Of a stretch of DNA of 64,000 bases, positions 14,980-58,994 are shown piece by piece. A model generated the notes under the pieces. It saw only the letters and a list, made by a program, of their open reading frames with translations. It was not told the origin of the DNA and made no database searches. Both the position numbers and the translations under genes were made by a program. Source of the DNA: Candidatus Kaiserbacteria bacterium (GTDB lineage: Bacteria; Patescibacteriota; Minisyncoccia; Phycocordibacterales; UBA2100); assembly GCA_027083345.1 (NCBI GenBank), contig JALWOZ010000030.1, forward strand, positions 977-64,976, read 5' to 3'. Numbering within the stretch: the stretch's first letter is position 1; every line of letters starts with the position of its first letter.

Positions 14980-16089
14980 TTATCTATTATCCAACAATAG
15001 CATAATAGCCTCCTCTGGAGACTCTGTAGCCATAAGTTGTTTACGCAAATCCTTAGCGCCGTCCCAACCATTAATATATGCCTTAAAATGCTTCTTCATC
15101 ACATGATAACCTTTATACTTTGGTTTAAGTAAGAACTCGTCAAAAAGCTCTATGTGCTCTATAAGCATTTTTATCTTTTTATTTTTTACTGCACTACTCC
15201 TAGTGAAGACACCTTCTGTAGGTTCACCATAACGAAACAACTTCTTAAATCCGAGGAAGTGGGCGGCTAGAGGTAGAAAGTTTAAGAAGTTTGTTTTGTT
15301 GTGGTGAGAGTTACAAGAACTAAAAAAGTCCGGAGTACCAAAAGAAGCACGTCCCACCATTATACCCTCACAACCATATTTATCTGCAAGCTCTTTGCCA
15401 TGCTTAACACTCTCTACATCCCCATTACCTATTATTATAGTATTTGGAGAGATTTTATCTCGCATTTTCACTATCTCTTTCATTAAGCTCCAATTTGCCG
15501 GAACTTTACTAAATTGACTACGCGTACGCAAATGTATTGTAAGTGCGTCTGGCTTTTCTTTTAAGATCTTAGTCAGCCAACCTTGCATCTCATCAACACT
15601 ATTATATCCAACTCTAGTTTTAACAGATAAAGCTAAATTTGGCGCACCTTTTCGTACTGCTCTTATGAGCTCTACTGCAAGCTCTGGATGTTTTATAAGT
15701 GCTGCGCCAGATATTTGTTTTATCACCGCATTAACAGGACAACCCATATTAATGTCTACTCCATCAAACCCAAGATCTTGCACTAGGCGAGCGGCATCCT
15801 CCATCCTCTTTGGGTTGCTGTTATATATTTGTGCAACTATTGGTCGTTGACCCTCTGTATAACTAAGCTTGGCACGCAACTTCTCCTGAGCGCGCACATC
15901 TCCAAAGGCCAAACCATCTGACGGCGTAAACTCTGTAAACATCACAAAGTCGCCAGGGGACCCCTGGCGACTTTGTTTAGAATACCTCGCAACCGTCTCC
16001 CTAAAAGCAATGTCGGTAACATCCTCCATGGGCGCCAGACAGAAAAAAGGCTTGTGCTTATATGCTGATTCTTGCCAAAAGTTTGTCAT
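14980..16089 (-). CDS. dus: tRNA-dihydrouridine synthase (DusB-like) carrying an in-frame insertion
   Basis: FCLAPMEDVTD..., DGVDINMGCP, KxR and a C-terminal helical-domain motif (MKKHFKAYINGW). Probable start is the Met of MTNFWQ at 16089, because the ORF-track start at 16161 would overlap the divergent GT2 gene. About 50 extra residues lie between the TIM barrel and the helical domain, and they coincide with repeat element A. Confidence 0.85.
   Translation of the reverse strand: MTNFWQESAYKHKPFFCLAPMEDVTDIAFRETVARYSKQSRQGSPGDFVMFTEFTPSDGLAFGDVRAQEKLRAKLSYTEGQRPIVAQIYNSNPKRMEDAARLVQDLGFDGVDINMGCPVNAVIKQISGAALIKHPELAVELIRAVRKGAPNLALSVKTRVGYNSVDEMQGWLTKILKEKPDALTIHLRTRSQFSKVPANWSLMKEIVKMRDKISPNTIIIGNGDVESVKHGKELADKYGCEGIMVGRASFGTPDFFSSCNSHHNKTNFLNFLPLAAHFLGFKKLFRYGEPTEGVFTRSSAVKNKKIKMLIEHIELFDEFLLKPKYKGYHVMKKHFKAYINGWDGAKDLRKQLMATESPEEAIMLLLDNR
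15239..15291. repeat. Hairpin element A: 11-bp inverted repeat (aacttcttaaa / tttaagaagtt) flanking conserved core tccgaggaagtgggcggctagaggtagaaag. Lies in-frame inside dus.
   Basis: Core shares AGTGGGCGGCTAG(G/A)G(A/G)TAGA(G/A)(A/G)G with elements at 38001-38087 and 58909-58994. Stem sequences are unrelated between copies. Confidence 0.5.
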
Positions 16090-16142
16090 AATTTTGTAAA
16101 ATACTATCAGTTTCAAACATAATATGCTAGTATTTTGAAGCA

Positions 16143-17399
16143 ATGACTGTAGACACAACATTGGTATATATATTACTGTATATTTCGCTCTATTTTGAGG
16201 TTTTTTTGTTAACTTCTTTTATTACTTATAAAAAACAACAAAAACACTCAAATAAACAATCGCGTAATAAGTTACCCACTGCCACAATCATAGTGCCATG
16301 CTATAATGAGGAGAAGACATTAGGAGGTACCCTCGATTCATTACTTGCATTAGACTATCCTAAAGATAAACTAAAGATAGCGGTAGTCAATGACGGTTCT
16401 AAAGACAAAACTCAGCAAATAGCTGAATATTTTGCAACACGGCACTCTCAAATTAAAGTACTGAACAAGAAAAATGGAGGTAAGGCCAGTGCCATGAACT
16501 TAGCTCTTAAACATTGCAACACTGAGCTTGTAGGATGTCTCGACGCAGACTCTTTTGTAGAGCCAAATGCACTACTACTTATGACTAAACATTTTATGCA
16601 CGACTCAAACATAAGTGCCGTAACTCCAGCCATAATGGTACACAAGCCCAAAAACATACTACAATTAATGCAACGAGCAGAGTACATGGTAGGAGTGTTC
16701 ATGAGGCGCGCTTTTGATATGCTAGACGCTATTGTTGTAACTCCTGGCCCTTTTACTATATTCCGTAGGGAACATATATTATCTATAAGCAATAATGGCA
16801 CAAACGTATGGAGACATGCACATGGCACAGAGGACTATGAAATGGGGTTAAGACTACAGCATAATCATAAAAAGATAGCAAACGAACCCATGGCTAAAGT
16901 ACTTACAATCTCTCCTAAAACTCTATATGCTCTATATAGACAAAGGATACGTTGGGTATATGGCTTTCTCATGAACACAATAGACTACAGACACATGATA
17001 GGTAATAAGCGCTATGGTAATGTTGGTTTATTTGTATTGCCTTTTGCTTTAATAAGTGTGGTGGGTGCTACTACACTATTTGGCATATTAATATATAAAA
17101 CTATTAATTCTCTAATAGACTTTTACACTAGAGTAAGTACAGTAGGCATAAGCTGGAGCATGTTTAATATTGAGTGGTTTTATATAAACACCAGCACCTC
17201 AATATTCATTATGTTAACTCTTCTATCTATCATTTTTACCATTTTGTATTACTCAGCCCAAATGTCTAAAACTAAAGTCCGCATATTAGATACATTAGTA
17301 TACATACTCCTTTATGGGTTTATATCTCCTTTATGGCTCACAGGGGCAACGGCCAGAGCCATTACAAAATCTGAGTCTAAGTGGCGTGTTATAAGATAA
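16143..17399 (+). CDS. Processive family-2 glycosyltransferase (PgaC/IcaA/NodC/cellulose-synthase-like polysaccharide synthase), integral membrane
   Basis: N-terminal TM, PCYNEE, VVNDGSKD (DxD context), GGKASAMN, DAD, TED (GTEDYEMGLRL) and QRIRW (QxxRW) motifs. C-terminal TM bundle. Confidence 0.85.
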   Translation: MTVDTTLVYILLYISLYFEVFLLTSFITYKKQQKHSNKQSRNKLPTATIIVPCYNEEKTLGGTLDSLLALDYPKDKLKIAVVNDGSKDKTQQIAEYFATRHSQIKVLNKKNGGKASAMNLALKHCNTELVGCLDADSFVEPNALLLMTKHFMHDSNISAVTPAIMVHKPKNILQLMQRAEYMVGVFMRRAFDMLDAIVVTPGPFTIFRREHILSISNNGTNVWRHAHGTEDYEMGLRLQHNHKKIANEPMAKVLTISPKTLYALYRQRIRWVYGFLMNTIDYRHMIGNKRYGNVGLFVLPFALISVVGATTLFGILIYKTINSLIDFYTRVSTVGISWSMFNIEWFYINTSTSIFIMLTLLSIIFTILYYSAQMSKTKVRILDTLVYILLYGFISPLWLTGATARAITKSESKWRVIR

Positions 17400-17409
17400 A
17401 TTAGTTAAT

Positions 17410-18090
17410 ATGAATTACAAACGATATTTATGGTCATTCTTAATAACCAGTACTATATTTGCAACTGCAATAGTCATAAGCAATAAACTAAATGAAGCAA
17501 AATTAGGACAAGTACGAGCAATGGAAGATAAAATGAGCATAGACATACTCTCATTAGAAACACAATTTGACCTACTACAAGAGCTATCATGTACACAAAT
17601 AAGTAATAATTCTATACTCTCTAGTGAGTTATCTAACCTTGCTCATAAACTATCTTACATGGAGAGCCAAAGAGGGACGAGTGATGCTGAAGTCATAAGG
17701 TTAAAAAGAAAGTATTCATTACTACAAATAAAAGACTTACTACTAATACAGAAAATATCTGCCAAATGTGGCACAGAACCTACCGTTATACTCTACTTTT
17801 ACTCTAATGCTGGAGATTGTAAAGATTGTACAAAACAAGGCTACGTCTTAACCAAATTAGGAGACGAACATAACTCTCTACGAGTATACTCTTTTGACGC
17901 TAATCTTGATATGACAGCATTGAATACTTTATTAAAAATCCACAACATAGGTAAAACTTACCCCTCACTAGTCATAAATGGAGAAACCTATAAAGGCTTT
18001 AAGAGTTTGGATGAAATACAAAAACTATTACCTCAACTCTCTGATACAGACACTTCTACAAGCTCTAAAAAGGTTGAGCAAGATAGGTAA
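17410..18090 (+). CDS. Membrane-anchored coiled-coil protein with C-terminal thioredoxin/glutaredoxin-like CxxC domain (hypothetical)
   Basis: N-terminal TM (LWSFLITSTIFATAIVI), central heptad-rich region, CKDC motif, glutaredoxin-like VINGETYKGFKSLDEI. Confidence 0.45.
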   Translation: MNYKRYLWSFLITSTIFATAIVISNKLNEAKLGQVRAMEDKMSIDILSLETQFDLLQELSCTQISNNSILSSELSNLAHKLSYMESQRGTSDAEVIRLKRKYSLLQIKDLLLIQKISAKCGTEPTVILYFYSNAGDCKDCTKQGYVLTKLGDEHNSLRVYSFDANLDMTALNTLLKIHNIGKTYPSLVINGETYKGFKSLDEIQKLLPQLSDTDTSTSSKKVEQDR

Positions 18091-18108
18091 TTGAAATAAC
18101 GAACTTTG

Positions 18109-18183
18109 AGCCAGAAATCGGACTCGAACCGATGACCTACCCAACTTAACTAATGCCAAAGCGGTTGCTCTGAGCTATGAGAT
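18109..18183 (-). pseudogene. Degenerate partial copy of tRNA-Thr (3' half retained)
   Basis: Shares about 38 identical nt (plus-strand ctttgagccagaaatcggactcgaaccgatgacctacc, which is the T-arm plus 3' acceptor strand) with the intact tRNA-Thr 94 bp away. The 5' acceptor strand and anticodon stem are not maintained. Confidence 0.5.
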
Positions 18184-18202
18184 TTCGCGTTAGCGTGCTT
18201 TG

Positions 18203-18275
18203 AGCCAGAAATCGGACTCGAACCGATGACCTACCGCTTACAAAGCGGTTGCTCTACCAACTGAGCTATTCTGGC
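18203..18275 (-). tRNA. tRNA-Thr (anticodon TGT)
   Basis: Reverse complement GCCAGAATAGCTCAGTTGGTAGAGCAACCGCTTTGTAAGCGGTAGGTCATCGGTTCGAGTCCGATTTCTGGCT folds as a perfect cloverleaf. Anticodon loop TTTGTAA. Confidence 0.9.
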
Positions 18276-18292
18276 TGATGCGCGTAATACTA

Positions 18293-18700
18293 CTACAATT
18301 TATTATCTTCGGCAACCTTCTCTGTGTCTAATGAGTCTTTGTACTCTTGAACATCTTTTAGATACCCATTCTGCTCTCTTAGTGAATCGCCATTTTGTTT
18401 GGCTACCGCACTTTTATGTGCAACTGATCGTGCTCTCCACTCTATCTTCTTTGCTATACTAGCCGTAATCTTAGCAAACTTATGGGCTAAAATATTATAC
18501 ACATAAGAGACAAGATGCTTGGCGTTCTCTAAATTAATCATATTAATACAAGTCTTCTCTATTTGGATAATCTTATTATCTAACGCCTCACGCCTCTCTC
18601 TGGCAAAGATAACACTATCCTTATGTAACTCTATACTCTTAAGAGTAAATAAAGCTATCACACCCAATAATGCTAATATAAATACAATAAACGACATCAT
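18293..18700 (-). CDS. Small N-terminally membrane-anchored protein (hypothetical)
   Basis: TM helix at residues 3-22, then a charged helical region. Lies downstream of tsf in the same orientation. Confidence 0.45.
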   Translation of the reverse strand: MMSFIVFILALLGVIALFTLKSIELHKDSVIFARERREALDNKIIQIEKTCINMINLENAKHLVSYVYNILAHKFAKITASIAKKIEWRARSVAHKSAVAKQNGDSLREQNGYLKDVQEYKDSLDTEKVAEDNKL

Positions 18701-18728
18701 ATACTGCTATTATAACACAATAGTTAAC

Positions 18729-19298
18729 CTATGCAGAAAATCTTTCCATACGAGTTATCTCCACTCTCTCTCCAAACTTTTGAGTAGCATCTTTTACCAA
18801 CTGCCCTATGGTCTTGTCTGCATCTTTAACAAAAGATTGTTCTGTTAGAACCTTCTCTTTAAGATAAGAATTCATTTTGCCTTCTACTATCTTCTCCCTC
18901 ATGTCCTCTGGTTTATCTTTAGCCTCGTCTATAAAAACTTCTTTGGCAGCTGATATATCCTCCTCTTTAACACTCTCCTTATTTAAAAACATTGGAGCCA
19001 TAGCTGCTACATGCATAGCCATATCATATGCCAAAGATTTAAACTCCTCATTTTTAGCAACAAAGTCTGTCTCACATGAGAGTACCACGACTCCGGCAAC
19101 ACTACCTCCTTGGTGTAAATATACCCCTACAGTACCCGCACCTAAATCTCTATCACCTTTTTTATCTGCTACTTGTGCGCTTATTTTGCGTAAGAGTACC
19201 TTAGCCTTCTCTATATCTCCTCCAGCCTCCTCTAATGCCTTTTTACATTGCATAATAGACACTCCTGTCTCATCTCTTAACTTTTTTATATCATCCAT
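18729..19298 (-). CDS. tsf: Elongation factor Ts (short form)
   Basis: N-terminal UBA-like LRDETGVSIMQCKKALEEAGGDIEKAKVLLR and core EF-Ts dimerisation domain. Directly downstream of rpsB. Confidence 0.9.
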   Translation of the reverse strand: MDDIKKLRDETGVSIMQCKKALEEAGGDIEKAKVLLRKISAQVADKKGDRDLGAGTVGVYLHQGGSVAGVVVLSCETDFVAKNEEFKSLAYDMAMHVAAMAPMFLNKESVKEEDISAAKEVFIDEAKDKPEDMREKIVEGKMNSYLKEKVLTEQSFVKDADKTIGQLVKDATQKFGERVEITRMERFSA

Positions 19299-19312
19299 AA
19301 TACTAATATTAT

Positions 19313-20014
19313 TTACTTAATTGCACTAGCAATCTCTTTAACAAAAAACTCAATGCTCTTTCTAGTTGTGTCGTTAGCCGGTATAGGATATGTAATATTA
19401 GATATATCACAATCATTATTTGCTATAGCTATAACAGGTATACCTAATTGATTAGCCTCAGCTACCCCCTTATTCTCAAATCCCGGATCCACCACAAACA
19501 CCGCCACGGGCAACTTCTTCATAGACAACAATCCGCCAAACTTTTGTTCTAAGTCGGCTATCTCTCTGTCTATCATAAGCCTCTCAAGCTTTGTAAACTT
19601 CTCTAATGCTCCAGACTCCCTATCTGCTATAAGCTTCTCTAATTTGTCTACTCTTTTGCGAATCTCTTTAAAGTTTGTAAGGGTACCTCCTATATAACGA
19701 GTGCATGAATATGGCTGGGCCTTACTCTCTGCTGTGTTACGCATTATATCGCGTGCCTCATTCTTCCCTCCTAAAAATAGTATTTGCCCGTCTGTTTTTG
19801 TGAGCTCAGCCACTGCCTCTTTAGCCTTCTCTAGCATGGCTGCGGTTTTCTCTAGATCAAATATATCGTTCTTGCCTTTTTGCCCGAATATATAGTCAAT
19901 AACACTTGGATGCCTACGACTCCTTGTGTAACTATAATGAGCCCCAGCGTTAAACATATCCTTTATTTTGTCTTTTGTATTTACTGTTGTTGTCATAGCG
20001 CCATATGCTACCAA
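19313..20014 (-). CDS. rpsB: 30S ribosomal protein S2
   Basis: Characteristic S2 segments (HYSYTRSRRHP..., ILFLGGKNEARDIM, LPVAVFVVD). Conserved rpsB-tsf pair. Confidence 0.9.
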   Translation of the reverse strand: MVAYGAMTTTVNTKDKIKDMFNAGAHYSYTRSRRHPSVIDYIFGQKGKNDIFDLEKTAAMLEKAKEAVAELTKTDGQILFLGGKNEARDIMRNTAESKAQPYSCTRYIGGTLTNFKEIRKRVDKLEKLIADRESGALEKFTKLERLMIDREIADLEQKFGGLLSMKKLPVAVFVVDPGFENKGVAEANQLGIPVIAIANNDCDISNITYPIPANDTTRKSIEFFVKEIASAIK

Positions 20015-20456
20015 AAAAGCTCTGCATAAGCAAGTAAAAAATAAAAATATTTAATCCAAGTCAAAACTTGACATCTAACTAAATCTATTGCCTATAATTA
20101 TATTTATGTTAGTATGTTGTCGCCTTGGGTTTGGTCGCACCTTAGGCAATTGTACAAGTCGCGACCGGGAGACCTGCTATAATGAAAAACAAAAGAAAAA
20201 ACTATAGCAGGGAGGCTCCCCACTTTCTCGGGGAAGACTATCTTCTTCTTATAGAAGACGAGGTCCTCAAGAAAGTGGTGGTGTCGTCTATCGTTCATAA
20301 AGAAAACGAAGACGACATCATAGAGCTACTCTTTAAAAAGGGGTACCGACAACAAGACTGGGTATCCCGAGGAGATTGGTGGATTATCACCGTCTCATAA
20401 AGAGATAGCTCTAAAACAGTCAGTTAGTATCTTACATGCTGGCTGTTTTCTTTTGC

Positions 20457-22283
20457 CTACTCTTCTACAAACACAGCTTTTATCCTTCTTACGCCCGCAC
20501 TACTGCTACTCTCTTTTTTGATCTCAAATTTGCCAAATTTACTAATATCTTTAGTATTCTCTACATGTGGGCCACCACAAAGCTCTCTTGAGTACACATT
20601 ACCCTCTGAGTCTACAATCTTATAAACAGTTACAATATCTGGATACTTCTCCCAAAAAGCACCTGTAGCACCGCTTTCTCTAGCCTCTTCTTTAGGCATC
20701 TCTTCTATCTCTACTTTTGCGCCAGCCTGTATTGCACCATTTACAAAATCCTCTACTTTATCTAATACATCTCTCTCTACCTTAGAATCATGAGTAAAGT
20801 CAAAGCGCGCGCGCTCGGCAGTAATGTTACTACCTTTTTGTGTAACATGCTCTCCAAGCTCTTTACGCAAGCCTGCCAGCATAAGGTGTGTAGCTGTGTG
20901 AAAGGCTGTTGTCTTCTCTGAGTGGTCTGCCAAGCCTCCCTTAAACTTCTGCTCTGCTCCAACTCTACTTTGCTCTTTATGCTTATCCATCTCAACTTTA
21001 AAAGCTTTGACGTCTACACTCAAACCCTCCTCATATGCAAGCTCTTGCGTAAGCTCTATAGGGAAGCCGTATGTAGTAAAGAGCACATAAGCATCATGCC
21101 CTGAGACTTCTTTGATCCCTTTTGTCTTCATCTTATTAAACTCCTTTAAGCCCCTCTCAAGAGTCTTCCTAAATTGCTCCTCCTCTGCGAGCACCACAGT
21201 ATTATCTGAGAGCTCACCGGCAGGTACTCCAAGCTTATCTGCGTGTATTATACTTCTGCGAATTAAACGTCTTACAAAGTACCCCTGTTCAGTATTACTT
21301 GGCAATATGTTCTCTGCTATCATTGTCTCAGCTGCGCGAATATGGTCTGCAATGATACGAAAAGACTCCTTATGCTCATCATCTTCATAACTTTTACCTG
21401 ACTTCTCCTCAAGAGGCTTAATAATGTTCTGGAATACGTCTATAGTAAAAACATCTGCACTGTTGTGTACTGCAGCGGTTAATCTCTCTAAACCTCCTCC
21501 ATAATCAATGTTTTTATTCTCTAGCTCAACAAAACTACCATCCTCTAGCTTTTTATACTGCATAAAAACATTATTACCTATCTCTATAAAGCGCCCACAA
21601 TCACAATTAGGATGGCAGTACTCACCAAACACCGGATCATGCTCAACATCTGGAAACTCATAAAACATCTCAGAGTCAGGGCCACCAGGTTCACCAGCAG
21701 GCATATTTGCCGGAACACCGGCCCTGCTCCACCAATTCTTTTTACCATCATAATAAAAGATTCTCTCGCCTTCTCTTATACCTCTAACTCCACCATCACT
21801 CTCACTACCTATGTCAGCTATATCGGCATCTAGACCGACACCATTAAACAACTCTTGCCAAACTCTTGGAGCTTCCTCATCTTTTGGTATGCCGGCCTGA
21901 TCATCGCCACCAAAACATGTTATATACAATCTAGAAGGGTCTAACATAATCTCTTTAGTCAAAAACTCCCACATCCAGCGTATTTGTTCTTCTTTAAAAT
22001 AGTCACCAAAAGACCAGTTACCAAGCATCTCAAAGTGAGTGGTGTGTCTGTTATCTCCCACATCTTCAATATCATCTGCTCTAAAGCACTTTTGAGAATC
22101 TGTAATCCTAGTACCTTGCGGATGCTTAGCCCCTAATAAGTATTGTATCATCGGCTGCATACCAGAACCCGTAAAGAGAGTTGTTGGGTCGTTCTCTGGC
22201 ACTAAAGGACTACTTGGCACTATTGTATGCCCCTTACTCTCCATAAACTTTAAGTACTTCTCTCTTACTTCTGCTGTCTTCAT
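20457..22283 (-). CDS. alaS: Alanine--tRNA ligase, truncated form lacking the C-Ala domain
   Basis: Class II catalytic core (FRADDIEDVGDNRHTTHFEMLGNWSFGDYFK). Editing-domain HxxxH (HTATHLMLAGL) and CGGPHV zinc motif. 608 aa. Confidence 0.9.
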   Translation of the reverse strand: MKTAEVREKYLKFMESKGHTIVPSSPLVPENDPTTLFTGSGMQPMIQYLLGAKHPQGTRITDSQKCFRADDIEDVGDNRHTTHFEMLGNWSFGDYFKEEQIRWMWEFLTKEIMLDPSRLYITCFGGDDQAGIPKDEEAPRVWQELFNGVGLDADIADIGSESDGGVRGIREGERIFYYDGKKNWWSRAGVPANMPAGEPGGPDSEMFYEFPDVEHDPVFGEYCHPNCDCGRFIEIGNNVFMQYKKLEDGSFVELENKNIDYGGGLERLTAAVHNSADVFTIDVFQNIIKPLEEKSGKSYEDDEHKESFRIIADHIRAAETMIAENILPSNTEQGYFVRRLIRRSIIHADKLGVPAGELSDNTVVLAEEEQFRKTLERGLKEFNKMKTKGIKEVSGHDAYVLFTTYGFPIELTQELAYEEGLSVDVKAFKVEMDKHKEQSRVGAEQKFKGGLADHSEKTTAFHTATHLMLAGLRKELGEHVTQKGSNITAERARFDFTHDSKVERDVLDKVEDFVNGAIQAGAKVEIEEMPKEEARESGATGAFWEKYPDIVTVYKIVDSEGNVYSRELCGGPHVENTKDISKFGKFEIKKESSSSAGVRRIKAVFVEE

Positions 22284-29780: not shown

Positions 29781-29899
29781 TTAATTCCTCTAACTAACAA
29801 AAGAACAAGTATTAACAACTAAATACAATAAAGAAGAACCAATGACCAACCAATAATTTGGCAAAATATAAACCTAAAATCTAGTGATTCACAAAGCTC

Positions 29900-33360
<3,461 letters not shown>

Positions 33361-37453: not shown

Positions 37454-37924
37454 TTACCAAGCGAAGTGAGCGAAAGCCTTATTAGCCTCGGCCATCTTGT
37501 GTGTATTCTCCTTCTTAGTTACTGCCTCTCCCTCATTATTGCTTGCTGCAAGTAGCTCTTCTGCTAGACGCTTGCTCATACTACTACCCTTCTTTGCTTT
37601 TGCTGCGGCGATTATCCAGCGCAATGCCAAAGAAAGCTTACGCTCAGCGCGTACCTCAACAGGAACTTGATAATTAGCTCCTCCAACACGCCTTGAGCGC
37701 ACCTCCATACTAGGTCCAACATTCTGTAGTGCTGTATCAAAGACCTCTAAAGGATCCACGCCTTTGCCACTATTTTTAATTATATCAAATGCATCATATA
37801 CAACTTTGCGGGCGATGTTCTTCTTCCCGTCTTGCATAATATAATTAATAAGTTTTGCCACATTTACAGATCCATACTCTCTGTCTGCCGCTATACCTTT
37901 CTTATTTTTAATTGGTCTTCTCAT
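37454..37924 (-). CDS. rpsG: 30S ribosomal protein S7
   Basis: Full-length S7 similarity (156 aa). Position downstream of rpsL. Confidence 0.95.
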   Translation of the reverse strand: MRRPIKNKKGIAADREYGSVNVAKLINYIMQDGKKNIARKVVYDAFDIIKNSGKGVDPLEVFDTALQNVGPSMEVRSRRVGGANYQVPVEVRAERKLSLALRWIIAAAKAKKGSSMSKRLAEELLAASNNEGEAVTKKENTHKMAEANKAFAHFAW

Positions 37925-38000
37925 ATAGTTTTTAGATTACTCTCACGCTAAGCGTGATAATTTATTCACCTTTAATAATTTATAATGTACTTTTGCTGTT

Positions 38001-38087
38001 TAAGCAGCAGTCACATATTATTTATAAATCCGGGGCAGTGGGCGGCTAGGGATAGAGGATTTAGAAATAATATGTGACTGCTGCTTA
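38001..38087. repeat. Hairpin element B: about 29-bp near-perfect inverted repeat (taagcagcagtcacatattattt...) flanking conserved core tccggggcagtgggcggctagggatagagga, in the rpsL-rpsG intercistronic spacer
   Basis: Arms 38001-38029 and 38059-38087 are complementary with 1-2 mismatches. The core is near-identical to the core at 58936-58966. Confidence 0.6.
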
Positions 38088-38103
38088 TACCTCAACTATT
38101 AAC

Positions 38104-38511
38104 TTACTTAGGGCGACGAGCTCCATACTTAGAGCGACCCTGCTTGCGACCGTCAACCCCTTCAGCATCAAGCTTGCCACGCACCACAGTATAGTTGACA
38201 CCAATATCCTTAACTCTACCACCACGCACAAGCACTACTGAGTGCTCTTGTAAATTGTGCCCTTCTCCGGGTATATACGCTGTAATCTCCATACCATTAG
38301 TAAGACGCACTCTGGCAATTTTACGAATAGCTGAGTTAGGCTTACGAGGAGTCTTAGTTGTAACCTTTGTACACACGCCTCGCTTAAACGGAGCCGAGTA
38401 TCCGGTAGGTCTATTTTTTAGAGAGTTAAAGCCTCGCCTAAGCGCAACTGTATTACTACCTTTGCGGGCCTTACTCCTTTTATTTTTTACTAATTGACTT
38501 ATTGTTGCCAT
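38104..38511 (-). CDS. rpsL: 30S ribosomal protein S12
   Basis: [45 protein letters not shown]... matches S12 almost residue for residue. Confidence 0.95.
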
Positions 38512-51722: not shown

Positions 51723-51723
51723 T

Positions 51724-52556: not shown

Positions 52557-52594
52557 CAGGCAATTGTAATATAATGGTATAATAAATTTGCATA

Positions 52595-54112
52595 ATGGTA
52601 GACATGATAGATAAAAATAAAATCCCTATAGAGGTTACACATATAACCAACAAGATTGAGGAGGCAGGCTTTGAAGCATATCTTGTAGGTGGCTGTGTAC
52701 GAGACCTGCTCTTAAGTAGAACTCCTAAAGACTGGGATGTTACAACTAATGCAAAACCAGAGGAGATTATCCACATTTTTGGAGAAGAAGAGACTTTCTA
52801 TGAGAACAGCTTTGGCACAGTAGGGGTTAAAATAAACCAAATAGAGAGTAACTCGGATCTTAAAGATGATGATGGTATAGTAGAAGTAACCCCTTATCGT
52901 ACAGAGAGTACATACTCAGACAAACGTAGACCTGATAAAGTAATATTTAGTACCTCTCTCTCTGACGACCTTAAACGCAGAGACTTTACCATAAATGCTC
53001 TGGCATATAGACAATCAAAAAGCCTATTAGTAGATGAATATAATGGCAAAAAAGACCTAGACAACAAAACAATAAAAGCAGTAGGGGACGCAAACAAGAG
53101 ATTTAATGAAGATGCTTTACGTATTATAAGAGCATTACGCCTCTCTGCTCAATTAGATTTTACTATAGACGGCGATACACTGCTTGCAATAGTCAATGCG
53201 GTAGATTTACTAAAAGTAGTTTCACATGAAAGGATGCGAGATGAATTTAATAAGATAATAATGTCTGACACTCCAGCATCTGCACTTGGGCTAGCAGAGC
53301 AATTAAAAATGTTACAGTACATAGTGCCAGAGTTAAGAGAGGGTATAAACTGTGAGCAAGGCAAAAAGGCTCATAAATACGACGTATTTGAGCATAACCT
53401 AAGAGCACTACAACATGCAGCAGACAAAGGTCTGGGCTTAGAGGAGCGCCTTGCAAGCCTCTTCCATGATATTGGCAAACCAAGGAGCAGACGAGAGAAA
53501 CCTGCCCGCCGTGGCGGGGGCAATGGATATACCTTCTATGGGCATGAGGTAATAGGAGAGAGGATGACTAAAGCGATTATGCAACGGCTCAAATATCCTA
53601 AAGACACTACCAAGCAAGTAGCCAGCCTTGTGCGTTGGCATATGTTCTTCTCTGACCCAGACATCATCACTCTCTCTGCTGTGCGTAGGATGATCACAAA
53701 TGTGGGGGAGAAGAATATACAAAAATTACTAAACATAAGAATGTGCGATAGAATAGGCAGTGGCCGTCCCAAGGAGCAGCCATTCCGCTTCCGTAAATAT
53801 CAAGCAATGGTAGACGAGGCTCTGCGCGACCCTATATCAGTCGGCATGCTCAAGATAGACGGCTCATACATAATGGAGCACCTAGGAGAGAAGCCAGGCC
53901 CACGCATAGGTTGGCTCTTACATGCACTCCTTGAGGATGTATTAGATGATCCAGAGAACAATACAGTAGAATATCTCTCAGATAAGGCAAAAACCTTATT
54001 AAAATTAGACAATAACGAGCTCAAACACTTGGGTAAAAGTGGTGCAGAAAAGCAAAAAGAAGCCGACGAAGCTGAGGTGGCAAAGCTCCGAGAGAAGCAT
54101 CACGTGTCGTAA
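52595..54112 (+). CDS. cca: CCA-adding tRNA nucleotidyltransferase with HD domain
   Basis: Pol-beta NTase motif GGCVRDLLLSRTPKDWDVTT. PolyA_pol head/neck. HD motif (LFHDIGK). Lys-rich C-terminal tail. Confidence 0.85.
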   Translation: MVDMIDKNKIPIEVTHITNKIEEAGFEAYLVGGCVRDLLLSRTPKDWDVTTNAKPEEIIHIFGEEETFYENSFGTVGVKINQIESNSDLKDDDGIVEVTPYRTESTYSDKRRPDKVIFSTSLSDDLKRRDFTINALAYRQSKSLLVDEYNGKKDLDNKTIKAVGDANKRFNEDALRIIRALRLSAQLDFTIDGDTLLAIVNAVDLLKVVSHERMRDEFNKIIMSDTPASALGLAEQLKMLQYIVPELREGINCEQGKKAHKYDVFEHNLRALQHAADKGLGLEERLASLFHDIGKPRSRREKPARRGGGNGYTFYGHEVIGERMTKAIMQRLKYPKDTTKQVASLVRWHMFFSDPDIITLSAVRRMITNVGEKNIQKLLNIRMCDRIGSGRPKEQPFRFRKYQAMVDEALRDPISVGMLKIDGSYIMEHLGEKPGPRIGWLLHALLEDVLDDPENNTVEYLSDKAKTLLKLDNNELKHLGKSGAEKQKEADEAEVAKLREKHHVS

Positions 54113-54271
54113 TGACTCACAAGTAATACCAGAGCTCTGTAGGACAAACTAGCCACGGGGTCTTGCGCAGACGGCATCGTTAATGCCTGCGAGCAGAGCC
54201 AATTTTCTCCGCAGAGAAAATATGGTGAACCCCTGGGTAGTTTCGTCCTACAGAGCTCTAATACTTATAAA

Positions 54272-55060
54272 CTATATACTCACATCCACAGAGATAGGGC
54301 AATGGTCTGAGCCATATATACTCGTGTGTATCTGTGCACCCTTAACCTTAGACATTAGTTCCTCACTTGCAAAAATATAATCTATACGCCAGCCAACATT
54401 GCGCTCTCGTGCGCGCGTCTTCATATCCCAATACGAGTATTGCACCTTGTCGGGATTCAAATACCTAAAGGTGTCTACATATCCAAGAGCCTCCATCTCG
54501 TCTATCCACTCACGCTCCATAGGCAAGAAGCCGGTATTCTGCTCATTTGCTTTGGGTCGTGCCAGGTCCACCTCATTGTGTGCAGTATTTACATCACCCA
54601 TCCAAAGAACATTTGGTTGTCTCTTACGGACATTCTCTATAAAGGACATAAATATCTCATAGTACCCCATCTTAAAGGACAATCTCTCCGGACCACCTCC
54701 ACCGTTAGGGAAGTAGCCATTACACACTGCAAAGTCCTCAAATTCTACTGTTATAAGCCGGCCCTCACCGTCGTACTCCTCACTCCCTAATCCGTATTGC
54801 ACACTCTTAATTTTATCGGCAATCGGTTCTGCAATATACATTGCCGTACCACTGTAGCCCTTACGCTTTTTACTACTATTCCAATATGACACATATCCTT
54901 TTATCTCTCTTAGTGACTCTGGCATTTGCTCTTTTTCCATCTTTATCTCTTGCAGAGAGATTATATCTGGCTTTAAAGACACAAAATCTTCCCAAAAACC
55001 ATTACGATGCACAGCACGCAAACCATTAACATTCCAAGATACTATTCTCATAAGCAACAC
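54272..55060 (-). CDS. xth: Exodeoxyribonuclease III (AP endonuclease, EEP family)
   Basis: MRIVSWNVNGLRA start, QEIK, WxGDxN, SDHCPI motifs. Confidence 0.9.
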   Translation of the reverse strand: MLLMRIVSWNVNGLRAVHRNGFWEDFVSLKPDIISLQEIKMEKEQMPESLREIKGYVSYWNSSKKRKGYSGTAMYIAEPIADKIKSVQYGLGSEEYDGEGRLITVEFEDFAVCNGYFPNGGGGPERLSFKMGYYEIFMSFIENVRKRQPNVLWMGDVNTAHNEVDLARPKANEQNTGFLPMEREWIDEMEALGYVDTFRYLNPDKVQYSYWDMKTRARERNVGWRIDYIFASEELMSKVKGAQIHTSIYGSDHCPISVDVSI

Positions 55061-55069
55061 TATATCACA

Positions 55070-55990
55070 TTAACCTCTTTTGCGATTATGAAACGCCTTA
55101 TGCACCTCCTTGAGATGCTTGTCTGTCACGTGCGTATATACTTGAGTAGTAGATATGTTGGCGTGACCAAGTAAGGCCTGCACTGCGCGCAGGTCGGCTC
55201 CACCTTCAAGGAGGTCTGTAGCAAAGGAGTGTCTTATCACATGCGGGGTAACCTTTTTGCTAATACCAGCCTCAATAGCTCGCCTCTTGACTATCCTCTC
55301 TACAGAGCGGGGGGTAAGGCGCATATCTCCGCTCTCCTCCGCACCTTTAGCTAAGGAGATAAACATTGCCTCATCCATATCTTTACGTGCATTGAGATAC
55401 TTATTTAAGGCCTCTTTGGCAGAAGAGGAGAGGAAGACAACACGCACCTTAGAACCCTTACCGCGCACAGAGAATTCATCTCTGGTTAAATCCAAATCTC
55501 TATCTACAGAGCACAACTCCGAAACGCGCAAGCCTGTAGAGAAGAGGGTATGGAGTATCGCAGAATCTCTCAATGCCTTTAGAGTACCCGCGTCCTCCCC
55601 CTTGCTTGGCGCCTCTAGCAACCTCTTTAGCTCATCACAGGTAATGAGGTCTAGGTCTCTGTCTCCGAGCTTAGCAAGCTCTATTTTATCCGGGGCCAAA
55701 CATTTGACACCTCTCTTGCGAAGATACTTTAAGAATGAGCGCAGGGCTATAAGGTGGTAGTTTTGTGTATTCTTCTTCAACGTGTCGCCATCTGAGCCAA
55801 TTTGCCTATTGAGCCACAGTCGATATTCGCGCACAGACTGCTCTGTAATGTCTTTAGGCTTATCTGCGCCAGAGTAACCAAGGTACCTAACTAAGTATTG
55901 ATCATAATTTGCAACAGTCCTTGCGGCTCTGCCACGCTCTATCTCCAAATATTCTAGATACTCCTGCTTTAGGTCAAACAAACTTTGCAT
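55070..55990 (-). CDS. Tyrosine site-specific recombinase, XerC/XerD-like
   Basis: N-terminal SAM-like core-binding domain. Catalytic R...HxxR...Y (HVIRHSFATDLLEGGADLRAVQALLGHANISTTQVYTHV). Confidence 0.85.
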   Translation of the reverse strand: MQSLFDLKQEYLEYLEIERGRAARTVANYDQYLVRYLGYSGADKPKDITEQSVREYRLWLNRQIGSDGDTLKKNTQNYHLIALRSFLKYLRKRGVKCLAPDKIELAKLGDRDLDLITCDELKRLLEAPSKGEDAGTLKALRDSAILHTLFSTGLRVSELCSVDRDLDLTRDEFSVRGKGSKVRVVFLSSSAKEALNKYLNARKDMDEAMFISLAKGAEESGDMRLTPRSVERIVKRRAIEAGISKKVTPHVIRHSFATDLLEGGADLRAVQALLGHANISTTQVYTHVTDKHLKEVHKAFHNRKRG

Positions 55991-56106
55991 TAATATAATT
56001 ATAACACCAATGAACCAATAATCTTATAAATAACTACGAGGACTTGCATTCTTGCATTAGTGGCTAATATATTGTATAATCGTGCGCACTAAGTCACAAA
56101 AATCAT

Positions 56107-56376
56107 ATGACATTAACAAAAAGAATAAAAACAGCAGCAATCAAAAAGGTACAAAAAAGTGATAAAGACACTGGCTCTGCCGGCGTACAAGTATCAATAC
56201 TATCTAAAAAAATAGACAAACTAGCTGCCCACTTAAAAAAGAACCACAAAGACACTCACTCACGCAAGGGTCTATTGCAAATGGTAGCAGACCGCCGTAA
56301 GCACCTAAAGTACCTAGAGAAAAAGGATTCAAATACCTACACAGAGCTTGTTAAGACTCTTGGCTTGAAGAAATAG
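56107..56376 (+). CDS. rpsO: 30S ribosomal protein S15
   Basis: GSAGVQVSILSKKIDKLAAHLKKNHKDTHSRKGLLQMVADRRKHLKYL matches the S15 signature. Confidence 0.9.
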   Translation: MTLTKRIKTAAIKKVQKSDKDTGSAGVQVSILSKKIDKLAAHLKKNHKDTHSRKGLLQMVADRRKHLKYLEKKDSNTYTELVKTLGLKK

Positions 56377-56589
56377 CCTTTACTAAAACATAAGTACTAG
56401 ATCGTTGCGAGGCCATCCGCAAGATTTGGGCTTGGACGATAAATCCTACGCTTGCGTAGTGATTTATCCCAAATCTGAGGACTGTTGCTTGCTCCGCAGG
56501 AGAGCAGGCATTGCCGAGGAATGATATAGTACTTATGTTTATACATACCTCTTATATCAATTACTAATACACAATATATAATAAACACA

Positions 56590-57153
56590 ATGACAGTAAC
56601 AAAACACCCGCAACAAAGAGTTGCCATATTCATAGATACACAAAACTTATATCACAGCGCCAAGAATCTCTACGGAGCCAAGGTCAACTTTAAGAATCTC
56701 CTTGAGGATGCCGTGGCAGGCAGGCAGCTCATCCGCGCCAAGGCCTATGTGGTAGACACCGAGGGAGGGGAGGAGCAACCCTTCTTTGAAGCACTGGAGA
56801 AGCTCGGCATAGACATAAAGACAAAGGATATACAAGTCTTTGCAGGCGGAGCTAAGAAGGCCGACTGGGATGTAGGCCTAGCAATAGACGCCGTAACAAT
56901 CTCTCAAAAGATAGACGCCGTGGTACTAGCCACCGGAGATGGCGACTTTGTACCTCTTGTTAAGTACTTACAAGCACAGGAGTGCCAGGTGGAGGTTATA
57001 AGCTTTGCGCGCAGTAGCTCTGGGATGCTTATTGAGGCTGTAGACGACTTTATAGACATGGGGCAAGATAAGAGGAGGTACCTCATAGGCAACCGCCGCC
57101 GCAACTCCAACACCAAACGCAAACAATCAACTCGTAGAAATACTACAAAATAA
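56590..57153 (+). CDS. NYN-domain (LabA-like PIN-fold) predicted RNase, basic C-terminal tail
   Basis: RVAIFIDTQNLYHS...VVLATGDGDFVPLVKYL matches the LabA/NYN pattern (conserved acidic residues D16, D127/D129). Arg/Lys-rich tail. Confidence 0.75.
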   Translation: MTVTKHPQQRVAIFIDTQNLYHSAKNLYGAKVNFKNLLEDAVAGRQLIRAKAYVVDTEGGEEQPFFEALEKLGIDIKTKDIQVFAGGAKKADWDVGLAIDAVTISQKIDAVVLATGDGDFVPLVKYLQAQECQVEVISFARSSSGMLIEAVDDFIDMGQDKRRYLIGNRRRNSNTKRKQSTRRNTTK

Positions 57154-57199
57154 TCGGAATACATAGTAATTAAAGTTAAGTTAATTAGTATCACTAGTA

Positions 57200-57228
57200 T
57201 TGACTAGTGTACTAATGTGTGTTATTAT
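57200..57228 (+). promoter_or_regulatory. Candidate sigma70-like promoter TTGACT-17-TATTAT followed by a roughly 235-nt structured leader
   Basis: Hexamers at 57200-57205 and 57223-57228. Several hairpins at 57340-57450. Strong SD AAAGGAGAAAAG 6 nt before the ATG at 57465. Confidence 0.35.
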
Positions 57229-57464
57229 TCTAGTGTAGATCAAGATGGTATTCAATCACGACATTACCTATGCAAGTGATGTTTGAGACTATTCCTTGGT
57301 TTAAAATTGTTCTTTTACAATATGATACTTAGGTTAAGACGTGGTGTTAGATATTCCACTTTGGTTTTGATTACTCGAAACCAGTGTGGAGTATCTGCTC
57401 CCGTCTGTCGAAAACGGACGTTAAACCCAGTCTCAGCCCTCGAGGGGGCGAAAGGAGAAAAGTC

Positions 57465-58526
57465 ATGATCAATACTTTAGAATATATAAACGCAATGGGT
57501 AAGGCCAGCAAAGCTGGCCTCCCCGCCGAGGATGGCGGGGTTGAATACGTCCGCCACCAACTGGCGGCCGGTAACCCAATCGATAGCGAGCGGGTGGTGC
57601 CACTCGCTATAGATGAAACGAGGGGTGTAACCCCTCTCCGGCAGGACGCTTTCGAGCGTCCCGCTCTGGCCATACCGGCCGAGTGGGGCCACCTGAGGGC
57701 GGCCCGCCTCATGATAGAGGCCGGGGCAACCACCCACGGGGTGGTATGGGACGGGTGTGAAGTACCATGGGAGGAGAAGGCGGACTGGGTCCGCGAACTT
57801 CTTTCAATGGTACCGGCTGACCAGCCGGTTCTCATACACCCGCAGTCAATCGCCGCGGGTGGTGATAGATACTCCCTCATGGAGTATCGCCCCGAGCAAG
57901 GGGTGAAGGACGGTGGGTATAATACCCGCCATCTCTTAAAAAATGACCGGGCGCTCAGCGCGCCGGTCGAGGCGCTGGCAATGATCGTTCGCGATCCGCG
58001 GGCGATCTTGGGGGGCAACTTCAAAGGCTGCAACCTGCACGCAATGCTACCGGTCATGACCGGTGCGTACCGGGGGCACTCGGTCCTTGATGCATCACCA
58101 AATTTTTATGACCTTGGTCCTTGGTCGGTGTCGGAGGAGGAGGTTACGGCCTTCTTCTGGCGACATTTTGAACACCCCCAAGAGGCGGCTGTGATAACAC
58201 AGCCCCTGCTTGGGAAACTGCTGTGGCGAGCCGTTAAGGGGCGTTCCGCGCTCGTCTACCACGACGAGCCGGACGCCCTGGTAGGATTCCACCAAGGGCT
58301 TGGAACATGCGGGCTGGCTGCCCGCATATGGCGGTGGAAGGACTACGGCCAGGAGGCGTACTACGCCTCTCTGACGAAGGTAGACGTCAGCGCCGACACA
58401 GAGGAATGGCGTCATGCAGACCCAATTCCTTTGGTGCAAAAAATCTGCCGAACAAAGGCAGAGGCGCGCACCTGGCTCGACGAGCAGGTTGCCGCTGCGG
58501 CTAAAGTCGCAGCCAAAACCGCCTGA
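57465..58526 (+). CDS. GC-rich hypothetical protein (353 aa), compositionally foreign. Function unknown.
   Basis: Uninterrupted ORF with canonical SD. GCC/GGC/CGG-rich codon usage in sharp contrast with the AT-rich flanks. No recognisable motif. The ORF-track start at 57384 is less likely than the SD-ATG at 57465. Confidence 0.6.
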   Translation: MINTLEYINAMGKASKAGLPAEDGGVEYVRHQLAAGNPIDSERVVPLAIDETRGVTPLRQDAFERPALAIPAEWGHLRAARLMIEAGATTHGVVWDGCEVPWEEKADWVRELLSMVPADQPVLIHPQSIAAGGDRYSLMEYRPEQGVKDGGYNTRHLLKNDRALSAPVEALAMIVRDPRAILGGNFKGCNLHAMLPVMTGAYRGHSVLDASPNFYDLGPWSVSEEEVTAFFWRHFEHPQEAAVITQPLLGKLLWRAVKGRSALVYHDEPDALVGFHQGLGTCGLAARIWRWKDYGQEAYYASLTKVDVSADTEEWRHADPIPLVQKICRTKAEARTWLDEQVAAAAKVAAKTA

Positions 58527-58908
58527 GTATCAACAACGCCGGTGGGAAGCTATGCTTGCCACCGGCACGGTTAAAAGTTTCAAGGTAGGTTCTTTCCAAA
58601 AACCTCCAACTCTCTTAGAGTGTGTACTCTAACTGATGAGTCCCCGACCTCCGTAACTACGGCGGGCAGGCACAAGGACGAAAGAGTCTTACAATCCAAC
58701 TAAATAAAATAAAAGTTTCAACAGAGCTCAAAAACAGGCAGGTCATCGGGAAGCCGACAAATTTGGTAAAGTTATGTAAATTTGGTACACTGACGCTATT
58801 ATAAACACGAGTTTGCAGATACAGCATTGAACTTTGCTTATATCTGATATATAAGCAAAAGACGTTCAGTTCTGCATTCTGTAAGCTCATAAAAACGTTG
58901 GTATGTAA

Positions 58909-58994
58909 GTGAGAGTGGTGGAAACAATTTTCAAACCCGGGGCAGTGGGCGGCTAGGGATAGAGGGTTTGAAAATTCGTTTGCTCCGCTCTCAC
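58909..58994. repeat. Hairpin element C: imperfect about 30-bp inverted repeat (gtgagag...attttcaaaccc / gggtttgaaaatt...ctctcac) flanking conserved core cccggggcagtgggcggctagggatagaggg, in the pnp 5' leader
   Basis: Core nearly identical to element B (38029-38059) while the stems are unrelated. 32 nt upstream of the pnp ATG. Confidence 0.6.

Follow-up and report, generated by a model that had tools for sequence, protein, structure and literature searches.

What kind of element can sit in the spacer between two ribosomal protein genes, in the leader of pnp, and in frame within a tRNA-dihydrouridine synthase gene? The 64-kb window (the whole stretch of DNA analyzed, 64,000 nucleotides) raises this question, as a 20-nt core, AGTGGGCGGCTAGRGRTAGA, is present on its plus strand at 15258-15277, 38037-38056, and 58944-58963. 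There are no further matches in the window, even with three mismatches allowed, and 100 shuffles of the window yield none, in line with a chance expectation of none; the exact matches and the shuffle control thus confirm the three copies reported in the initial annotation, and their contexts are as described when checked against the open reading frames. All three fold as long plus-strand hairpins, with energies of -39.3, -46.9, and -44.8 kcal/mol for copies A, B, and C, respectively, and folding z scores of -5.6 to -6.9. Copy A (15222-15309) lies inside dus (14980-16161, minus strand) with its loop strand antisense to the gene, and its loop, GAGGAAGTGGGCGGCTAGAGGTAGA (15253-15277, plus strand), is translated in frame as HHNKTNFLNFLPLAAHFLGFKKLFRYGE. 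Copy B (37998-38090) is in the rpsL-rpsG spacer, with its loop, GGGGCAGTGGGCGGCTAGGGATAGA (38032-38056, plus strand), on the strand antisense to the operon; the flanking genes span 37454-38511 on the minus strand (rpsG, 37454-37924; rpsL, 38104-38511). Copy C (58908-58995; loop at 58939-58963, plus strand) is sense to pnp, coding for polynucleotide phosphorylase (59026-61272, plus strand), and ends 30 nt before the ATG at 59026.

The copies share an architecture in which conservation declines away from the loop. Each is a hairpin of about 90 nt (84 to 98 nt) with a 25-nt, G-rich, and nearly invariant loop, although that of copy A is the most diverged in the family. The inner 11 bp of the stem are ∼75% conserved between copies, and a weaker consensus (RNAAAY...TTTNYAAACCC / GGGTTTRRAAA...RTTT) reaches about 20 nt from the loop, such that an inner stem of ∼20 bp is recognizably homologous. 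The outer 10 to 17 bp of the arms are locus specific and unrelated between nonorthologous copies. The proposal that the stems are nonhomologous therefore holds for the outer segments but not for the inner ones, and the stem of copy A, given initially as 11 bp, actually extends for ∼30 bp, of which three are G·T pairs, with a single bulge. The same gradient is seen at sites shared between genomes, where identity is 94% in the loop (94/100), ∼75% in the inner stem, 25 to 74% in the outer stem, and 40 to 70% in the flanks. No two copies have full-length arms in common, and no fresh transposition of a whole element was caught.

The stems are nonetheless maintained. The covariation score is 0.381, compared with 0.182 ± 0.018 in shuffles and 0.12 to 0.24 in slid controls, and 28 of 36 stem pairs show double changes in the family alignment. 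Among orthologous copy pairs, 70 stem pairs are unchanged and 13 are lost, with 7 single changes and 32 double, compensatory ones. [quoted passage not shown] A purely DNA-level reading, as was also suggested, is doubtful, however, because imperfections on the loop-bearing strand are G·T rather than A·C by 30 to 4 (P = 6e-6) whatever the direction of the gene; this bias suggests that one strand takes a single-stranded form, as either DNA or RNA.

The element is dispersed and is also present in relatives, contrary to what a refutation of the initial proposal would have required. Across at least six related Patescibacteria assemblies, we count 16 copies and a further, degenerate one, at a density of about one copy per 16 to 20 kb. 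Its sites include the rpsL-rpsG spacer, the pnp and rplJ leaders, the 5S-23S spacer, a position just after smpB, and in-frame positions in dus and murB. The metagenome-assembled genome (MAG) S139_169 has eight copies, others are in dus of GCA_054017555.1 and in murB of GCA_015491155.1 and GCA_054015255.1, and one is on a metagenome contig. A covariance model recovers every copy at 69 to 94 bits, and the degenerate copy, which contains a nested hairpin, at an E value of 0.019. Among the three pattern hits in metagenomes, two are chance matches, as is the only viral hit; all of these lack the hairpin, by which true copies can be distinguished. The carriers, a restricted group of ultra-small bacteria, belong to a Pacebacteria-like lineage of the Candidate Phyla Radiation (CPR). 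An Rfam 15 scan of the whole window gave no hit at the three sites, and in E-value mode copy B matched only generic microRNA-precursor models, far below threshold; we found no literature match for a ∼90-nt hairpin repeat of this kind.

The copies are insertions, as orthologous sites in close relatives are empty. The rpsL-rpsG spacer is 179 nt in the window genome but lacks the element in L021, which has the closest RpsG (87%), and in L022, where it is 54 and 66 nt, respectively; conversely, the 5S-23S spacer is filled in MAG S139_169 and empty in the window genome. Some Dus and MurB orthologs lack the 28-aa segment, and all coding copies keep the frame with zero stop codons. In dus, the minus-strand reading frame proceeds through copy A as ...NFLNFLPLAAHFLGFKKL..., an insert within the linker that joins the TIM barrel to the C-terminal helical domain. 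That this is an in-frame insertion is borne out by close Dus orthologs without it (P0005, P0006, P0008, and P0011-P0017) and by one, P0003, with it at the same site; in L014, the dus site looks empty but is probably a deletion derivative. In murB, the insertion points differ by ∼12 nt between lineages, implying independent hits in the same protein loop. The copies persist only in permissive settings: leaders, short spacers, and, in proteins, surface or linker loops.

Some arms may derive from native sequence. In murB of L019, the stem base overlaps native sequence, pairing the TED codons ACAGAAGAT with ATCTCCTGT, and in L001 an arm is similar to TTAACTGCAGAGGG, the native sequence at the empty site in L017 (P ∼0.1 by our own estimate). 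In dus, a second hairpin family has an arm that is homologous to the PSCDLFAL and PTEGVFT segments of relatives and pairs with an inverted copy absent from those relatives; there is also a bare palindrome at 15944-15976. Taken singly, each of these apparently native-derived arms in murB and dus is a weak case. Other hairpin families in these genomes behave in the same way, and different families occupy the same sites in sister genomes. The same genomes have hairpin inserts of other sequence families inside 23S genes, whereas the family described here is found only beside rRNA genes and not inside them.

The uniform orientation noted initially is true of the three window copies but is not a rule, as a fourth copy in the same genome (copy D, in the rplJ leader) is on the minus strand at window-equivalent positions 64385-64476, 385 nt past the window end; the co-orientation of copies A, B, and C is thus incidental. 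Among the first 12 copies, five are sense and seven antisense to transcription, and this mixed orientation at other loci weakens the tentative parallel drawn with the RNase III-processed pnp hairpin of E. coli. Comparison of the window genome with the MAG shows the rplJ-leader copy, asymmetric stem positions included, in opposite orientations, and in-place inversion of the hairpin can occur. The nonorthologous copies C and D have an identical central 62 nt (19 + 25 + 18 nt), with the identity stopping sharply and symmetrically at unrelated bases, which suggests that the central hairpin is the unit exchanged. The ortholog of copy C in the MAG has a different inner stem.

We propose, with a confidence that is about evenly balanced, that these motifs represent a new family of selfish palindromic repeats, with a conserved tip and a locus-specific base, that behave like the Rickettsia palindromic elements (RPEs), which were reportedly described by Ogata et al. 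in 2000 and 2002. Both are palindromic repeats of ∼100 nt in reduced genomes, dispersed in intergenic DNA and RNA-gene regions and inserted in frame at permissive positions in protein genes, with several coexisting families; here, the palindrome is in frame in dus and murB and also in noncoding DNA, with orthologs lacking it. To our knowledge, neither a transposase nor a target duplication is established for the RPEs. The likeness is one of behavior, with no known sequence relation, and membership in any of the families RPE-1 to RPE-10 is implausible because the host is a Patescibacteria lineage, in another phylum. Moreover, RPE copies are alike over their full length, whereas conservation here is confined to the loop and inner stem, with a locus-specific base, and we know of no description of a strand-specific wobble bias or in-place inversion for RPEs.

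Other hairpin systems are less close. The nick-site hairpins of HUH enzymes (at rolling-circle origins, IS200/IS605 ends, and the Helitron 3' end) likewise combine a conserved loop or foot with an otherwise free stem sequence and are recognized on one strand, but they are short and beside the enzyme gene or at element ends, unlike the many solitary hairpins without cargo seen here. The intervening sequences of 23S rRNA are also extended hairpins, inserted at helix tips, but are separate sequence families. Integron attC sites, which have conserved R''/L'' and L'/R' boxes at the stem base, a variable center, and a cassette and integrase nearby, show the reverse architecture, and there is no integron integrase or cassette context here. 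Intrinsic terminators, with their short, GC-rich stems and trailing U-tract, are excluded by AT-rich stems of 30 to 37 bp, the 25-nt loop, and the lack of a following T-run. Correia/NEMIS, ERIC, and Coxiella QMITE repeats are small, nonautonomous, and fold as transcript hairpins, with some QMITEs in frame within genes (PMC5896051), but MITEs have conserved terminal inverted repeats and defined duplications (TA for Correia), and we find neither a fixed-length target duplication nor related outer arms (10 to 17 bp) between nonorthologous copies. Repetitive extragenic palindromes (REPs) are 20 to 40 nt with a GTAG or CGTC tag at the stem foot, extragenic, and present in hundreds of copies; REP/BIME elements, with their RAYT (Y1/HUH) transposases (PMC3733652), resemble ours in being short hairpins read on one strand, with compensating stems and probable single-stranded mobilization in trans. 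The hairpins here are longer (84 to 98 nt), sparser, and conserved in the loop, with a locus-specific stem foot and no common tetranucleotide, and they enter open reading frames. The suggested REP/BIME- or Correia-like identity is thus set aside, as there are no conserved ends, GTAG tag, or TA duplication, and the element is not purely extragenic.

If these are selfish repeats, the unit copied between loci would be the central hairpin of ∼60 to 65 nt (the loop plus an 18- to 20-bp stem), with the G-rich strand presumably handled single stranded, as DNA or RNA, by a putative trans-acting enzyme that reads the loop, much as HUH/Y1 enzymes read hairpins on one strand. Among the window open reading frames scanned, we found no transposase, reverse transcriptase, or HUH/Y1 gene (including RAYT), and the sole recombinase in the window is a XerC/D-like protein. 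The locus-specific base could arise by inverted copying of adjacent DNA, at insertion or afterwards, and its complementarity may be kept by templated repair within the hairpin, by selection, or by both. Effects on host RNAs, such as long double-stranded segments in the pnp, rplJ, and rpsL-rpsG transcripts, would be by-products that are perhaps occasionally co-opted. The loop is nearly identical at shared sites although the MurB proteins are only ∼57% identical, which is unexpected for a decaying selfish element unless copies are renewed or the loop serves the host.

A narrower version, which we regard as doubtful but worth stating, is that only the hairpin tip (∼60 nt: the 25-nt loop plus 18 to 20 bp) is mobile, by a mechanism undescribed for bacterial repeats. 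The tip might enter the tips of preexisting hairpins, or an inserted single strand might fold back and prime copying of the adjacent target DNA; by either route, the long stem of a new copy would come from local sequence. Tip-only movement would explain the conserved-tip and variable-base architecture, the one-strand G·T bias (through polymerase G·T mispairs or single-strand selection), stem bases overlapping native codons, the alternation of distinct tip families at given sites in sister genomes, and bare palindromes such as that at 15944-15976, as footprints after tip loss.

It is also conceivable, if rather improbable, that the element is a conventional MITE- or RPE-like nonautonomous transposon in which the whole ∼90-nt palindrome moves, with old copies, saturated ends, and a center kept by short-patch gene conversion. 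Homology does fade gradually from the loop to about 20 nt, arms are common to orthologous pairs (58 to 74% identity in dus and murB, and clearly homologous in rplJ), the arms moved with the loop in the rplJ inversion, and the 62-nt identity of copies C and D fits a conversion tract. However, that identity ends without decay, terminal sequences are not conserved in any nonorthologous pair, and stem bases overlap native murB coding sequence. No target-site duplication is detectable over 14 copies (arm-versus-flank permutation P = 0.87 in one polarity; P = 0.017 in the other, which does not survive testing of four comparisons), filled and empty site pairs show no clean duplication, and no conserved flank motif was found around the copies. 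Conversion within genomes alone also cannot keep one loop across such divergent genomes.

An unlikely reading is that the hairpin is a host-selected cis-acting RNA or single-stranded DNA signal, for example, a processing site (for RNase III or otherwise), an element controlling stability or attenuation, or a binding site for a CPR-specific protein, recruited to leaders and spacers of highly expressed genes, with the coding copies as accidental spillover. The near-invariance of the loop at shared sites relative to the flanks, the strong covariation, and the restriction of G·U-type wobble to one strand speak for such a signal, and several sites (the pnp and rplJ leaders, the rpsL-rpsG and 5S-23S spacers, and the position after smpB) are classical places for RNA processing. 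These are countered by the mixed orientation and the flip at the orthologous rplJ site, the empty rpsL-rpsG spacer in the closest relative and empty 5S-23S spacer in the window genome, the dus and murB insertions, the different hairpin families at the same sites in sister genomes, and the lack of an Rfam family. Chance or assembly artefact is a negligible explanation for the core matches, given the shuffles, the same element in independent assemblies, and an ENA scaffold identical to the window over 14,975 nt.

The usual picture of CPR/Patescibacteria genomes is one of streamlining and little mobile DNA, yet here several hairpin families remodel rRNA operon spacers, ribosomal protein and pnp leaders, and the coding sequence of the essential enzymes MurB and Dus. 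As selfish palindromic repeats, they would offer a concrete origin for protein and rRNA insertions that are typical of CPR organisms but have lacked an explanation, and they would add a second case of translated palindromes, phylogenetically remote from that of Rickettsia. The conserved tip with a local base, the one-strand wobble, and in-place inversion provide testable handles on movement that are also relevant to RPEs and REP-like repeats. The elements make conserved marker proteins vary in length and place long double-stranded RNA within key transcripts, which matters for both annotation and expression studies.

A pattern search of the window finds the core AGTGGGCGGCTAGRGRTAGA at 15258, 38037, and 58944, all on the plus strand, confirming the three co-oriented copies described in the initial annotation; there is no further site in the window even at three mismatches, and none arises in dinucleotide-preserving shuffles. 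Each site is the center of a long hairpin. Copy A (15222-15309) is inside the minus-strand dus open reading frame (ORF), where it is translated in frame, copy B (37998-38090) is between rpsG and rpsL, and copy C (58908-58995) is in the pnp leader, with 30 nt between its end and the pnp start codon, all as first proposed. The stem of copy A, originally put at 11 bp, is ∼30 bp long, with three G·T pairs and a bulge in it. As RNA, the plus strands of copies A, B, and C fold at -39.3, -46.9, and -44.8 kcal/mol (z scores of -5.6 to -6.9), and the complementary strands fold more weakly (-25.1, -43.8, and -33.0 kcal/mol). When the loop was compared with other RNAs in the window for possible pairing, the longest match was ≤11 nt.

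Sixteen copies of this family (family 1) were gathered in all, including copies in relatives. Four are in the window genome (dus, the rpsL-rpsG spacer, the pnp leader, and the rplJ leader, the last 385 nt beyond the window end), and a core scan of species-representative genomes yielded eight, all in the metagenome-assembled genome (MAG) Patescibacteria group bacterium S139_169 (murB, the 5S-23S spacer, the 3′ end of ksgA, the rpsL-rpsG spacer, after smpB, an intergenic site, the pnp leader, and the rplJ leader). The others are single copies upstream of ruvA in a metagenome contig (L009), in dus of GCA_054017555.1, and in murB of GCA_015491155.1 and GCA_054015255.1. A covariance model made from 15 copies scores these at 69 to 94 bits; it finds no additional copy in the window, but does recognize a degenerate relative in dus of contig L012, in which a small nested hairpin splits the loop. 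Two metagenome matches and one viral match to the bare pattern have no hairpin and are regarded as chance matches. The window sequence is not a one-off assembly product, since 14,975 nt of it recur without a difference in an ENA scaffold. The window genome is placed in the Patescibacteria (CPR), near "Candidatus Pacebacteria," and Pacebacteria labels are attached to its closest named homologs of Dus, MurB, and S7.

The 25-nt loop (GGGGCAGTGGGCGGCTAGGGRTAGA) hardly varies. The 11 bp that close it (TTTWYAAACCC/GGGTTTRRAAA) are ∼75% conserved and vary by compensation (e.g., ATCC/GGAT versus AGTC/GACT versus ACCC/GGGT), and a weaker consensus reaches ∼20 nt out from the loop. The flanking repeats had been described as unrelated between copies, which holds for the outer 10 to 17 bp, differing from locus to locus, but not for these inner segments. 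The proposal of a conserved loop with covarying stems is borne out by the alignment of the copies, in which 28 of 36 stem pairs have changes on both sides and the covariation score is 0.381, compared with 0.182 ± 0.018 in shuffles (none of 500 reaches 0.381) and 0.12 to 0.24 with slid partners. Sites occupied in two genomes (rpsL-rpsG, pnp, dus, and murB) can be compared directly: the loop is identical at 94 of 100 positions, the inner stems at about 75%, the outer stems at 25 to 74%, and the 60-nt flanks at 40 to 70%. The loop sequence is thus held constant at shared sites. Seventy stem pairs are unchanged there, 7 have changed on one side and 32 on both while still pairing, and 13 are lost in one genome, indicating that pairing is actively maintained, even inside dus. 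The loop consensus fits G3+N1-7 repeats and a G-quadruplex is a possibility, but conservation does not extend to the fourth tract and the tracts are lost in copy A, and we do not favor it.

Ten close Dus orthologs (P0005, P0006, P0008, and P0011 to P0017) have GTPDFF joined directly to the helical domain, whereas the window Dus and one homolog (P0003) carry the element at the same site after GTPDFF (TNFLN.LPLAAH..GFKKLF). This supports the interpretation of the dus copy as an in-frame insertion, and in alignments to solved Dus structures the additional residues fall between the TIM barrel and the helical domain, as initially suggested. MurB of most relatives has eight residues between FKL and LK, but the MAG MurB and P0122 have 36, containing PLSLAAHCPGF, and two more distant MurB proteins hold the element a few codons away; since the insertion points differ, the same protein loop has been struck more than once. 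All coding copies are in frame and lack stop codons, and in all of them the loop strand is antisense to the gene, such that the loop is translated as P-L-(S/A)-L-A-A-H. Among non-coding sites, the 5S-23S spacer is filled in the MAG and empty in the window, and the rpsL-rpsG spacers are only 54 and 66 nt in two relatives, one of which has the closest S7 (87%). Comparison of occupied and empty sites indicates that the family-1 copies are insertions.

The stems carry a strand signature. With all 16 copies pooled, transition-type stem imperfections divide into 30 G·T and 4 A·C as read on the loop-bearing strand (P = 6e-6; 20:4 in the first 13 copies), a bias that holds whether a copy is sense or antisense to transcription. 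At 11 of 15 copies the loop strand has a negative local GC skew, so that deamination bias would push in the opposite direction to the G·T excess. Together these suggest that what counts, or what was originally produced, is the hairpin formed by the G-rich strand in single-stranded form. The bias could reflect selection on the folding of single-stranded DNA or RNA; alternatively, the mispairs would be those expected from fold-back synthesis, with one arm copied off the other.

Orientation is not a fixed feature of the family. The shared orientation of copies A, B, and C is incidental, as the fourth copy of the window genome (copy D), in the comM-rplJ spacer (L023:15360-15451, minus strand; window-equivalent 64385-64476), is oppositely oriented. 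In its MAG ortholog (at locus L008) the arms are the same, but the hairpin is inverted in its entirety, together with the asymmetric internal stem positions, relative to the conserved flanks; arm-arm recombination, or excision and reinsertion, can therefore flip the element. A link between orientation and replication was considered and set aside: the skew follows the direction of the genes, there are not enough independent sites, and the rplJ copy differs in orientation from one genome to the other. We note that a block upstream of the hairpin in this spacer is strongly alike in L023:15225-15330 and the MAG (TTGGACTGAAGACAGCATGC...GTCAGACGTGCCGAGTGGTCGAGCAGCTCCAAT); it has no match in Rfam and may be an unannotated leader or small RNA.

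Copies C and D are the closest pair among all copies, identical over 19 + 25 + 18 nt and unrelated outside, with the break symmetric on both arms. The MAG counterpart of C at pnp has a different inner stem, and the counterpart of D shares the inner stem of D. A central unit of ∼62 nt has thus apparently moved or been converted between loci in this lineage. As to the base of the hairpin, codons of the conserved TED in murB of contig L019 base-pair with an inverted copy of themselves across the stem, one arm in murB of MAG locus L001 resembles the native TTAACTGCAGAGGG of the empty site, and one arm of the second-family dus elements of contigs L014 and L015 (described below) is homologous to a non-hairpin flank in relatives. 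These cases, in which the stem base appears to overlap native sequence, are individually weak. Compared with other Dus proteins and a palindrome in the window dus, the L014 dus site is more likely a deletion derivative keeping one arm than an empty site, and it is thus not clean evidence for target-derived arms. Target-site duplication (arm, tip, inverted arm, and direct repeat), suspected by eye at L002 and L005, is unsupported as a general rule by permutation tests over 14 copies. A search of the flanks for a general motif or target preference gave none, the best 8-mer being in 6 copies compared with ≤5 in background; a AAAGAACA-like word is found 3′ of the hairpin in three to four copies. 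In three MAG copies (right flanks of L001, L002, and L007), (A/T)AAAGAACA occurs 3 to 8 nt after the hairpin, and the related CAAGAAC follows copy A; in murB the word belongs to the inserted material, and the empty 5S-23S spacer of the window has it too (29799-29815). No mobilizing enzyme was found within the window. A mobile tip with a locally built base is the leading but unproven mechanism; the more far-reaching possibility, that a new mechanism of tip hopping or fold-back insertion is at work, is considered fairly unlikely.

The same genomes hold other hairpin families of similar layout. A second family, at 56386-56540 (plus strand) between rpsO and an NYN-domain gene, has a ∼93-nt conserved center (ATCCGCAAGATTTGGGCTTGGA...CCCAAATCTGAGGACTGTTG...GCTCCGCAGGAGAGC) and locus-specific outer arms; it is in frame in dus of L014, L015, and P0007 and, in P0009 and P0010, at a different position of dus, and its translation reads LLRS.QQSSDLG...SSKPKSCG. 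A third type, at 54131-54259 between the CCA-adding enzyme and exonuclease III genes, has 31-nt arms (AGAGCTCTGTAGGACAAACTAGCCACGGGGT/ACCCCTGGGTAGTTTCGTCCTACAGAGCTCT), and a relative (…AAACTAACCACGGGGT…ACCCCTGGGTAGTTT…) occupies the window's second-family site in the MAG (L007). The dus linker, the dus N-terminal loop, and the rpsO-NYN spacer each hold different families in sister genomes, which can be explained by a paucity of permissive sites, or a preference for existing hairpins, in such compact genomes. The other dus insertion hotspot corresponds in the window to a perfect 16-bp palindrome with a 1-nt center (15944-15976; ACAAAGTCGCCAGGGG T CCCCTGGCGACTTTGT), which encodes SRQGSPGD and is kept in L015 with a compensatory change; it may be what was left behind when a hairpin tip was lost. 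In L012 dus, the native AAACAAAGT forms one arm of the degenerate family-1 hairpin.

Several other local features were observed. The window 23S rRNA gene (29901-33356, minus strand) is 3456 nt compared with a 2925-nt model, and relative to the MAG gene has an extra 415-nt segment (30194-30608), with a perfect 19-bp stem at 30281-30433 and a tRNA T-arm-like GGTTCGAATCC, and an extra ∼100-nt segment (32974-33081) that folds as a hairpin. The MAG 23S gene has two identical ∼120-nt hairpin inserts at different positions (L002:5024-5146 and L002:5683-5805), resembling intervening sequences, with -65 kcal/mol on the rRNA strand and internal AGTTTTT/CAACTAT repeats. A GC-rich 380-amino-acid ORF (57384-58526, plus strand), in a window otherwise 41% GC, has no Pfam match and looks like a foreign insertion; the NYN gene and copy C are 1.8 kb apart here, with the ORF in between, and the MAG has only 0.7 kb and a different small ORF at this place. 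At L014:14100-14215, a 79-nt insertion bounded by a 24-nt direct repeat (ATTGCCAGATCGTCTAATGGTAGG) looks like the scar of an integration event at a tRNA; the repeat corresponds to the 5′ portion of a tRNA gene, and L012 lacks the insertion. A LAGLIDADG homing-endonuclease ORF downstream of the EF-G region in a relative (L022:19295-19786) is probably inside an rRNA intron.

The best-supported reading is that family 1 consists of selfish palindromic repeats whose behavior resembles that of the Rickettsia palindromic elements. The initial comparison to those elements holds in behavior, as both are translated palindromic repeats, with family 1 in frame in dus and murB, but the two differ by phylum. 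A host function of the loop is possible and accords with its high conservation, but it is disfavored by an orientation that is mixed and flips, by patchy presence among close relatives, and by the insertions in coding sequences. The REP/BIME- or Correia-like element also raised initially is not sustained, since the defining features of REP/BIME, Correia, other MITEs, and attC are lacking, and family 1 is hence a member of none of them. No known RNA family matched in Rfam, either in the window at the gathering threshold or in permissive scans of copy B, the second family in dus, and the rplJ spacer. A phage origin is dismissed, as the scan of viral contigs gave a single chance match with no hairpin. 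In the open literature we found neither the core sequence nor any account of hairpin repeats in CPR. The finding of family 1 is real and not ordinary, and what is new here is that palindromic repeats of the translated kind occur in a new phylum and that their architecture, a conserved tip on a local base, is distinctive.
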